Shown here: positions 41,559 to 43,823 of the stretch, in pieces | Numbering within the stretch: position 1 is the stretch's first letter | How the letters are laid out: the number at the start of each line of letters is the position of its first letter | Sequence record: PQ666542 | Length of the DNA stretch: 64,000 bases | Source of the DNA: Shigella phage sb4 | Reading direction: 5' to 3' (one strand) | Translations under genes and position numbers: made by a program | Notes under the pieces: model-generated | Databases searched by the model: none | Told to the model about the DNA's origin: nothing | What the model saw: the letters and a program-made list of their open reading frames with translations, nothing else

Positions 41559-43823
41559 TCATAATTTACAGGATGAACAATCTTCAGCTTTTGGAGTTTC
41601 TATTTCATAATCATCAGTACCAGAACCGTCACGGGTATTATGATAATAGAAATTTTTTCCGCCAAAATACCAAAAATACAAAAGGTCATCAATCATTATT
41701 GACATTGGAACCTTTCCTTTTGGAAAAATCTGCGGGTCATAATATGTATTCGCTGAAGCTGATTGACATACCCATTTCAGCATAATAGCTACTTGCGTAA
41801 GATAAGGTTTATTACCTTTCTTAGCTAATTTCCACGTATAATCATAGAGGTCTATGTTATGCTCAATATTGGGCACGACTTGATTGAATGAACCCTCTTT
41901 TGATTCTTTAACAGAGACTGGTCCGCGTGGAGGCTCGATACCGTTTGTACTGTTAGAAACTTGGGAAGATGACTCACATGGCATAAGTGCTGATAATGTG
42001 CTATTACGGATGCCAAAGAGCTTAAGGTCTTCCCGCAGCGACGACCAGTCACAAACGTATTTTGGAGCTGCGATTTGGTCAATCTTTTTATTGTACCAGT
42101 CGATAGGTAATTCGCCTCGAGACCAACGAGTGTCTGAAAAATATTCGCAAGTTCCTTTTTCTTTGGCGAGCTTAATAGATGCTTTAATAAGTCCATTCTG
42201 CAATCTCTCAAATAGTTCATGTGTTAAATCGTTAGCGTCTTCATATGACGCAAAATTTCTTGCCAGCCAAGCTGCATAGTTAGTAACGCCTACGCCAAGG
42301 TTTCGACGTTTTTTAGCTTTTTCTGCTTCAGGAACTGGATATCCTTGGTAATCCAAAAGATTATCAAGAGCACGAACTTGGACTTCTGCCAATTCATTAA
42401 TTTTATCTTGGTCTTGCCAATCGAAGTTATCCAACACAAACGCAGATAACGTGCACAATCCAATTTCAGCATCAGGGCTATTCACATCATTTGTTGGAAT
42501 AGCAATTTCACAACACAAGTTACTCTGACGAATAGGTGCCTTTTCACGAATAAATGGAGTATAGTTATTCGTATTATCAATGAACTGCACATAAATCCTT
42601 GCTGTTCCTGAGCGTTCAGTCATGAGCAATTCAAACAGTTCACGGGCTTTAATACGCTTTTTACGAATATTAGGGTCTTTTTCTGCAGCTTCGTATAATT
42701 CACGGAAACGGTCTTGGTCTTTAAAATAAGAATAATAAAGTTCGCCACCCATTTCATGTGGACTGAACAAAGTAATGTAATCATTCTTTCCGAATCGTTC
42801 CATCATTAGGTCATTCAGTTGAACGCCATAATCCATATGACGGATACGGTTTTCTTCTACGCCTTTGTTATTTTTCAAAACGAGAAGATTTTCAACTTCC
42901 AAATGCCAAATAGGATAATAAGCAGTAGCAGCGCCGCCACGAATTCCGCCCTGTGAGCATGATTTAACAGCAGTTTGAAAATGTTTCCAAAAAGGAATAA
43001 CACCAGTATGACGTACTTCACCTGTACCAATCTTAGAGCCTTCGGCACGAATCATACCAACGTTAATGCCGATTCCAGCACGTTTGGAGATATATTCAAC
43101 AATTGAAGCAGAAGCCTTATTGATAGACTTTAATGAATCACCTGCTTCAATAACAACGCATGAACTAAACTGCCGAGTTGGAGTACGGCAACCAGCCATA
43201 ATAGGAGTTGGCAGTGAAATCTGTCGAGTAGATACTGCTTCATAAAAACGAATAACATGTTTTAATCTATCAACAGGTTCATCTTGATGCAATGCCATTC
43301 CAATAGTCATAAATGCAAACTGTGGAGTTTCATAAATTTGACCAGTGGTTTTATCTTTAACTAGATATTTTTATTTTAATTTCATCGCCCCAGAATAAGT
43401 AAATTCCATATACCGTTCGTGCTTAATTTTTTATTCTAAAAATTTAATTTATTCTGCTGAATATTTTTACAACAATTCAGGGTCATATTTACCTTCATTT
43501 ACACAGTAAGAAATATGGTCAATAAATGAACGTGGTTCATACTGTCCATAAACATGCTTACGAAGAGCGAACATTAAACAGCGTGCAGCTACATATTGAT
43601 AATCAGGCTCTTCAACTGAAATAGAATTCGCAGTAGCCTTAATTACAATGGTTTGAATGTCATCAGTTGTCATTCCATCACGGAGATATGATTTAATATT
43701 TTCATATAATTCATAAGGATCTACAGATGTTCCTTCAGCTGCCCAAGATAAAACCTTAATAATTTTTTGCGGGTCAAAGCTCTGTGTAACACCACTACTT
43801 TTGATAACATTAATTTATTGCAT
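41559..43823 (-). pseudogene. nrdA: Ribonucleotide reductase large subunit NrdA, five in-frame TAA clustered in the N-terminal region
   Basis: 755 codons in one frame, the T4 NrdA length; TAA at codon 3 and at 43467-43469, about 43449, 43431, 43371; body 41559-43310 intact. Confidence 0.88.

Follow-up and report, generated by a model that had tools for sequence, protein, structure and literature searches.

The nrdA gene, which encodes the large subunit of class Ia ribonucleotide reductase, carries five in-frame TAA codons in the 5′ part of its reading frame in the stretch of phage DNA analysed here (64 kb, called the window). This arrangement raises the question of whether a viable phage has lost a dispensable gene, whether the codons are read through, whether the DNA itself was damaged or whether the letters of the record are wrong. 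Over its whole length the window is collinear with the final 64 kb of Shigella phage pSs-1 (NC_025829.1, positions 100977–164999), and it is about 96–97% identical to pSs-1 and to the phages sb2, KNP5 and sb3, all four of which are T4-family Tequatrovirus members. Its genes run in the order gene 18, genes 19–24, rnlB, hoc, uvsW, baseplate genes, two alt paralogues and DNA ligase, followed by rnlA, denA, nrdB, nrdA, td, frd, gene 32, genes 34–38, t, asiA and motA. Both the phage, a pSs-1-like Tequatrovirus, and the gene with the stop cluster, an nrdA, are ordinary representatives of their kind.

Translation of the minus strand yields 754 NrdA residues with interruptions at codons 3, 119, 125, 131 and 151, each of them TAA (Table 1), and the sense codon found at each of these positions is the same in pSs-1, sb2, KNP5 and sb3. 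Several missense changes accompany the stops, with T127K, D138Y and Q148K lying among the four downstream TAA codons and S13T and A64T lying upstream of them. These results bear out a first-pass annotation made from the sequence alone, which had described five clustered TAA codons and nearby missense changes in the nrdA 5′ region and an uninterrupted body of the gene at positions 41559–43310. No single unbroken frame encodes the full protein, given the five in-frame TAA codons. Once these are repaired, however, Pfam matches occur in the order characteristic of class Ia enzymes, namely the ATP-cone (PF03477, residues 4–89), the all-alpha domain Ribonuc_red_lgN (PF00317, residues 139–216) and the barrel (PF02867, residues 220–728).

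Table 1 Reading frames, in-frame stop codons and bursts of base changes in the window
Feature	Position	Strand	Details
rnlB 5′ stop cluster	9742..9798	minus	TAA at codons 3, 19 and 21 (9796, 9748, 9742); A:T>T:A
alt_2 burst	26023..26149		Eight G:C>T:A in 127 nt; four GAA>TAA (26066, 26108, 26129, 26147) and four missense
Spanin/alc overlap burst	38067..38169		Densest G:C>T:A burst, ten in 103 nt; 2 stops, 7 missense, 1 synonymous
rnlA burst	39538..39565		Small G:C>T:A burst, 4 in 28 nt; one stop
nrdA	41559..43823	minus	Class Ia ribonucleotide reductase large subunit; five TAA inside; 97–98% DNA identity to annotated nrdA of pSs-1-like phages
nrdA residual uninterrupted ORF	41559..43310	minus	583 aa, from internal Met172; without the ATP-cone and part of the all-alpha domain
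nrdA TAA, codon 151	43371–43373	minus	Reference GAA
nrdA TAA, codon 131	43431–43433	minus	Reference TCA
nrdA TAA, codon 125	43449–43451	minus	Reference GAA
nrdA TAA, codon 119	43467–43469	minus	Reference TCA
nrdA TAA, codon 3	43815–43817	minus	Reference TTA; coding-strand T>A at 43816; overlaps nrdA.1 3′ end
nrdA burst	43373..43468		Seven G:C>T:A in 96 nt (43373, 43382, 43412, 43432, 43444, 43451, 43468)
gp35/gp36 junction burst	55656..55730		G:C>T:A burst, 4 in 75 nt
asiA and adjoining small ORF burst	61444..61552		G:C>T:A burst, 6 in 109 nt; 2 stops, 4 missense

The contrast within nrdA can be expressed against expectation. Positions 43371–43823 hold 10 A/T-directed transversions where 2.7 are expected and 5 stops where 0.5 is expected, whereas the body of the gene holds 6 such transversions (8.7 expected) and no stop (0.96 expected). 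The seven changes of the nrdA burst account for the TAA codons at 119, 125, 131 and 151 and for the three missense changes among them, and when read on the plus strand a T directly precedes the mutated base in 7 of 7 cases. None of the 766 matching phage records carries the burst changes, and the best identity across the burst is 94.3%, compared with a best identity of 99.3% for a control segment made up of the 141 nt adjoining it. Moreover, an exact 54-mer spanning four of the burst changes has no match in IMG/VR, JGI metagenomes or GTDB genomes.

Similar local clusters had been pointed out in alt, with four TAA codons in 26066–26149, and at the 5′ end of rnlB, with three. Both are present: the former are all GAA>TAA changes in the paralogue alt_2, and the latter replace codons that read AAA, AAA and TAT/TAC at positions 3, 19 and 21 in the references. 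We assessed this clustering by placing 49 stops, the total in the window, randomly among its 6770 stop-capable codons. Random placement produces a maximum of 4 stops per 100 nt with P = 0.0024 and three distinct 100-nt windows of at least 3 stops each with P = 0.0002. Together with the six bursts described below, this sustains the first-pass view that the process is not uniformly random.

A census of stops was made by projecting the pSs-1 annotation onto the window codon by codon, with pSs-1, sb2, KNP5 and sb3 as references. It yields 49 point nonsense codons spread over about 30 genes, a larger set than the part covered by the first-pass annotation. The genes affected include those for gp24, gp26, gp27, gp28, gp48, DNA ligase (gp30), gp59 and gp37, as well as motA, uvsW, td and rnlA; the stops in gp27 and gp37 include those at 17418 and 57388, respectively. 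Beyond the genes with stops, four have lengths that are not multiples of three. Gene 25 is frameshifted by a private 1-nt deletion. Private 1-nt insertions or deletions number only about 5 in the window.

These locations bear directly on the possibility that the interrupted genes are genuine pseudogenes, wherein a viable phage lost nrdA, alt and rnlB through nonsense mutations while selection preserved its essential genes. The three genes are indeed dispensable in T4, and the changes that interrupt them, single-base conversions of GAA-, TCA- or AAA-type codons to stops, resemble those of T4 amber and ochre mutants and of natural T-even pseudogenes. However, disabling changes are not confined to dispensable genes. 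Classical T4 genetics established that many of the genes with stops are essential (gp24, gp26, gp27, gp28, gp48, gp30 and gp37), and because so many essential genes are interrupted, the window as written cannot represent a plaque-forming phage. T4 mutants, by comparison, carry few changes and are viable on some host, whereas here about 30 genes are hit, many of them essential, and the classes of change occur in neutral proportions. The contrast between damaged dispensable genes and clean essential genes that the first-pass annotation implied thus dissolves, as stops occur in gp24, gp26, gp27, gp28, gp48, ligase, gp59, gp37 and motA, and gp25 has a frameshift. Stops in essential genes already largely refute the pseudogene reading.

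The stop-free stretches that had been set against these clusters, genes 18–23 and gene 34, do lack internal stops, but the deficit is only modestly significant in genes 18–23 (zero against 3.6 expected, P = 0.027) and not significant in gene 34 (zero against 1.6 expected, P = 0.2). Under a context-conditioned model, genes 18–23 also hold fewer transversions of the noise type than expected (20 against 34, P = 0.007), an observation that could speak for preservation by selection, and nrdB holds none where 6 are expected. This kilobase-scale unevenness adds to the clustering at 100 nt and does not track gene essentiality.

Selection can be examined more directly by using all private changes, defined as bases of the window that differ from all four references (n = 846). 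Two populations emerge. About 300 private changes are transitions that are mostly synonymous, do not vary with base composition and cluster over kilobase scales, and some of them are common to other natural phages. These look like ordinary lineage divergence, with the kilobase clustering that is expected for mosaic recombination, and the backbone of the window also contains natural repeat-length polymorphisms. The second population is an excess of transversions, with 189 G:C>T:A and 150 A:T>T:A changes and only 8 between C and G. The ratio of transitions to transversions is about 1:1 in the window and 3.6:1 in pSs-1. A simple two-component estimate drawn from the nonsynonymous/synonymous ratios given below puts the noise substitutions at roughly 370, which over approximately 57 kb of coding sequence amounts to some 0.6%.

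The excess transversions show no trace of purifying selection anywhere in the window. Private nonsynonymous changes outnumber synonymous ones at a ratio of 1.18, whereas the ratio is 0.17 in pSs-1, 0.24 in sb2, 0.22 in KNP5 and 0.32 in sb3. The G>T changes divide into 3 synonymous, 74 missense and 24 stop, where neutral fractions are 0.06, 0.79 and 0.15, respectively, and the C>A class comprises 18 synonymous and 141 nonsynonymous changes. Even intact and highly conserved proteins are affected: gp23 and AsiA contain residues absent from all of more than 1000 related records, AsiA reaches no more than 95.6% identity with the closest of 1164 records, and gp32 likewise carries unique missense changes. 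Syn/mis/stop proportions that are neutral everywhere, and unique missense changes in conserved intact genes, argue further against pseudogene formation under selection, which we regard as highly improbable.

Nor are the stops themselves a special product. Unselected substitutions of the same spectrum would be expected to create about 41 stops, and 48 are observed; for G:C>T:A changes conditioned on AT context, 30 stops are observed and 24.5 expected (P = 0.16). These numbers give no sign that the creation of stops was targeted, and they run counter to the nonsense-specific process that the first-pass annotation had implied. The predominance of TAA (38 of the 49 point stops, with TAG and TGA making up the others) has a similarly plain basis. 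TAA is the commonest stop because GAA, TCA, AAA and TTA, each a single change away from it, are common where the coding strand is A-rich, and the significance implied for this predominance falls away, since G>T in GAA, C>A in TCA and A>T in AAA are simply the commonest routes.

The same counts address the proposal that codon reassignment, or a suppressor tRNA of phage or host, keeps the genes functionally intact by readthrough. Recoding of stop codons exists in some phages, and TAA does dominate here. However, all three stop codons are used, and they replace at least ten kinds of residue (E, K, S, L, Y, C, W, G, Q and R) at sites that are sense codons in all four relatives. This inconsistency of the replaced residues refutes readthrough. 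Furthermore, genuine gene ends use the same stop codons, and ARAGORN finds no tRNA gene in the 64-kb window. We assign this explanation virtually no likelihood.

The excess changes have a pronounced sequence context. Alignment to the references and a search for features shared by the changed sites, two of the checks that the first-pass annotation had put forward, revealed that the changes prefer T[C>A]T where the surrounding DNA is AT-rich and that they are packaged into bursts of about 100 nt. The motif, which on the opposite strand reads A[G>T]A, includes an enrichment of T at positions −2 to +3, on both flanks, with p values down to 1e-8. The frequency of G:C>T:A per G/C site rises from 0.3% where local AT content is below 60% to 3.5% where it exceeds 85%, whereas the transition rate is flat at 0.6–0.7%. 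The A:T>T:A changes are not adjacent to cytosines.

The bursts are equally distinctive. Six G:C>T:A clusters are seen where 0.09 are expected under a null conditioned on local AT content, and AT-richness alone is thus insufficient as a cause of the clustering. Within the six clusters the changes are almost exclusively G:C>T:A. The pair-correlation excess is 4.5–5-fold below 50 nt and 2.5-fold at 75–100 nt, and falls to about 1.1-fold at 100–125 nt and 0.5-fold at 125–200 nt. This decay indicates that bursts have a sharp maximal length of about 100–125 nt. The strands are mixed: neighbours within 30 nt are of the same type (C>A or G>T) in 30 cases and of different types in 35, where a same-type fraction of 0.506 is expected (p = 0.54). 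The orientation in which T precedes the error, uniform in the nrdA burst, is mixed in the other bursts and weak overall (lagT of 0.63 against 0.55).

Dense, local and unselected changes of the G:C>T:A class, the classical outcome of 8-oxoguanine, could also be produced by real hypermutation of non-viable DNA, for example through clustered 8-oxoguanine-type lesions or a DNA-damaging host defence, with unselected molecules then being sequenced. The strand mixture speaks against this model, as lesions on one strand give one type of change per lineage and coordinated, ‘kataegis’-like damage is not seen. The T[C>A]T context in AT-rich DNA also differs from the CCG-type context of oxidative artefacts, and an equally unnatural excess of A:T>T:A changes occurs alongside. 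In addition, the sharp limit at 100–125 nt has no obvious biological basis, and the consensus of a ‘complete genome’ would not come from one damaged molecule. Hypermutation of this kind is therefore very unlikely in our estimation. A narrower version, in which the 100-nt G:C>T:A bursts would be real lesions left on both strands of AT-rich, hydroxymethylcytosine-containing DNA by localized damage (a host defence or an oxidative patch) in a non-viable genome, strikes us as scarcely credible. Action by a diversity-generating retroelement (DGR) or another targeted hypermutation system was also considered and rejected, given changes at both G/C and T/A, on both strands and throughout the window, that create stops.

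Oxidation during library preparation, as distinct from damage in the phage, would yield the same class of substitution (G>T/C>A) and would likewise be free of selection. It is disfavoured by the absence of strand coordination in the bursts and by the A:T>T:A excess, and the T-rich context is a further difference. Oxidative artefacts of this type normally have a low allele fraction and are absent from the consensus.

An origin in silico is another possibility, in which a generative model, faulty k-mer correction or polishing, or deliberate corruption would have turned rare G/C-containing words into common AT-rich ones. The changes do go towards the locally dominant composition, they are bursty with almost no insertions or deletions, and the exact sequence was matched in no collection searched; a look-up of the exact NrdB protein likewise returned no identical entry. 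Against this stands a backbone that resembles a real lineage, with its about 300 mostly synonymous and partly shared transitions and its repeat-length polymorphisms. The avoidance of changes between C and G and the fixed length of the bursts are also more typical of a physical read process. We consider an in silico origin unlikely.

The clustered TAA codons are very probably substitution errors of technical origin that entered the sequence as deposited or assembled, the phage itself being an ordinary member of the pSs-1-like group, and the stop clusters are almost certainly not a biological feature. The excess changes are unselected, private, context-dependent and bursty, and because they are in addition lethal, confined to substitutions, not strand-coordinated and packaged in units of read-like length, we interpret them as technical noise. 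Indeed, the traits expected of sequence errors occur together here: neutral proportions that extend to lethal hits, restriction to a single record, and a spectrum, context and length like those of sequencing reads. These properties fit a read process without identifying the platform.

In this model, a natural backbone of mostly synonymous transitions is overlaid by roughly 370 unselected changes, overwhelmingly G:C>T:A and A:T>T:A. These changes favour isolated G/C positions flanked by T/A, as in T[C>A]T, and fall in discrete bursts of about 100–125 nt. A change of this kind that strikes a GAA, TCA, AAA or TTA codon creates TAA, and nrdA codons 119–151 are located under one burst by chance and the alt_2 stops under another. 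The burst length, the restriction to substitutions and the mixture of C>A and G>T within bursts suggest miscalled short reads as the source, and single miscalled reads or read tails may have set the consensus at thinly covered AT-rich spots.

One candidate for the miscalling is spurious green signal in two-colour Illumina sequencing. In this chemistry, T is detected as green, C as red, A as both and G as dark. Added green signal would therefore convert G to T and C to A and leave other bases unaltered, and it could bleed from a neighbouring T. The window matches such signal mixing in the joint occurrence of C>A and G>T, and of no other change, in single bursts, in the presence of T beside the mutated C, in the restriction to substitutions and in the short-read scale. 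In contrast, the T>A changes that the mechanism predicts after C are not seen. Stoler and Nekrutenko (2021) predicted that phasing in two-colour chemistry would show up as C>A errors following a T, and this signal was not detected in their survey of public data (PMC8002175). We hold this sub-hypothesis with moderate confidence only, as a lead and not a demonstration.

The DNA of T4-family phages carries glucosylated hydroxymethylcytosine, and a different platform effect can be envisaged for this reason. Nanopore basecalls from the native glycosylated DNA of T-even-type phages are severely degraded (PMC12838424), and errors in the window likewise concentrate at cytosines, as C>A in a T-rich context. 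Nevertheless, an origin in native nanopore reads is disfavoured by the near-zero number of insertions and deletions, by the A:T>T:A changes located away from cytosines and by a burst length of 100–125 nt, which is not on the scale of long reads.

Two observations weigh against an artefact. A consensus error of 0.6% in a ‘complete’ phage genome is possible only with exceptionally thin coverage or a deficient way of building the consensus. In addition, the kilobase-scale unevenness seen in nrdB and genes 18–23 is explained no further than by ‘variable quality’. If the reads bore the changes out, they would represent a clustered mutational process of a new kind, and the evidence is strongly against this.

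The value of the finding lies in data quality and not in biology. Used uncorrected, the sequence would add false pseudogenes and shortened or split proteins by the dozen (NrdA, Alt, RnlA/B, UvsW, baseplate and tail-fibre proteins), together with hundreds of false amino-acid variants and an inflated divergence from pSs-1, and it might lead to mistaken claims that codons are recoded or genes lost. Similar records might be found by screening for a private nonsynonymous/synonymous ratio near 1, an excess of G:C>T:A at T[C]T where the DNA is AT-rich, and changes grouped into bursts of 100–125 nt.

In-frame stop errors are known in records of this clade, and the relatives used here provide a basis for comparison. 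The same codon-wise test finds no stops in pSs-1, 2 in KNP5, 3 in sb2 and 9 in sb3. The sister records sb2, sb3 and KNP5 resemble the window in being collinear and in having stops of the substitution type. They differ from it in that the window has 5–25 times more stops (48 compared with 2–9), a bias to G:C>T:A and A:T>T:A, and bursts of 100 nt. Their natural-like private spectra and few stops rule out the same noise in sb2, sb3 and KNP5. Two of these records do have stops in essential genes, located in gp18 and gp34 of sb2 and in gp34 and nrdB of sb3.

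Many of the A:T>T:A changes that create stop codons in the window occur at the junction of a T run and an A run, where the boundary has moved and the total length is unchanged. Examples include TTTAAAAA>TTTTAAAA and CAATTAAAT>CAATAAAAT. Stops of this kind look like signal-bleed or miscalling rather than mutation.

The dense burst of G:C>T:A changes is limited to one copy, the upstream-lying alt_2, of two tandem alt paralogues that encode ADP-ribosyltransferases and are arranged in the same way in pSs-1, sb2 and KNP5. The nrdB gene is strikingly clean, with 0 noise transversions (the excess, unselected G:C>T:A and A:T>T:A changes) against 6 expected. 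In T4, td and nrdB carry group I introns. Both reading frames are continuous in the window, and thus this lineage, unlike T4, lacks the T4-type introns in both genes.

Coordinates of features in the window
Feature	Position	Gene or region	Remark
Run-boundary A:T>T:A stops	9798, 26888, 35006, 39119, 43816, 44948, 63035
Tandem alt paralogues	22964-27073	alt	~684 aa each
Copy with dense burst	25019-27073	alt_2
Continuous frame	40329-41507	nrdB	1179 nt
Continuous frame	44381-45241	td	861 nt
Divergent patch	18289-21619	gp28, gp29, gp48
Acidic repeat	3836-3844	gene 67 region	GAT/GAG/GAA
Private indel	15286	gp25	shifts frame
Private indel	36122	pseT	shifts frame
Private indel	31238	small ORF
Private indel	31721
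Private indel	31987
Private indel	47329

Divergence from all four references (pSs-1, sb2, KNP5 and sb3) is much raised across gp28, gp29 and gp48, where synonymous changes dominate (35 private synonymous codons in gp29 and 44 in gp48). Rather than noise, the patch seems to be a natural mosaic segment whose source is a lineage outside the reference panel. The acidic repeat in the gene 67 region differs by 21-27 nt in length from all four references, an apparently ordinary polymorphism in repeat number that keeps the reading frame. Relative to the same genomes, the window also has a few private indels of 1-2 nt. Three of these indels lie in homopolymer runs. The gp25 and pseT frames are intact in all four references but are frameshifted here by such indels.

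In-frame stops also interrupt essential or conserved genes in the deposited sister genomes: gp18 and gp34 (two stops in the latter) in sb2; gp34, nrdB and alt_2 in sb3; and nrdB and arn in KNP5. Split genes appear in the annotations of all three records, and sequence errors seem to be common in records of the pSs-1-like clade. The final base of the window, position 64000, aligns to the final base of the pSs-1, sb2 and sb3 records. The window is therefore probably the final 64 kb of a 'complete genome' record linearized at the same point as those three.
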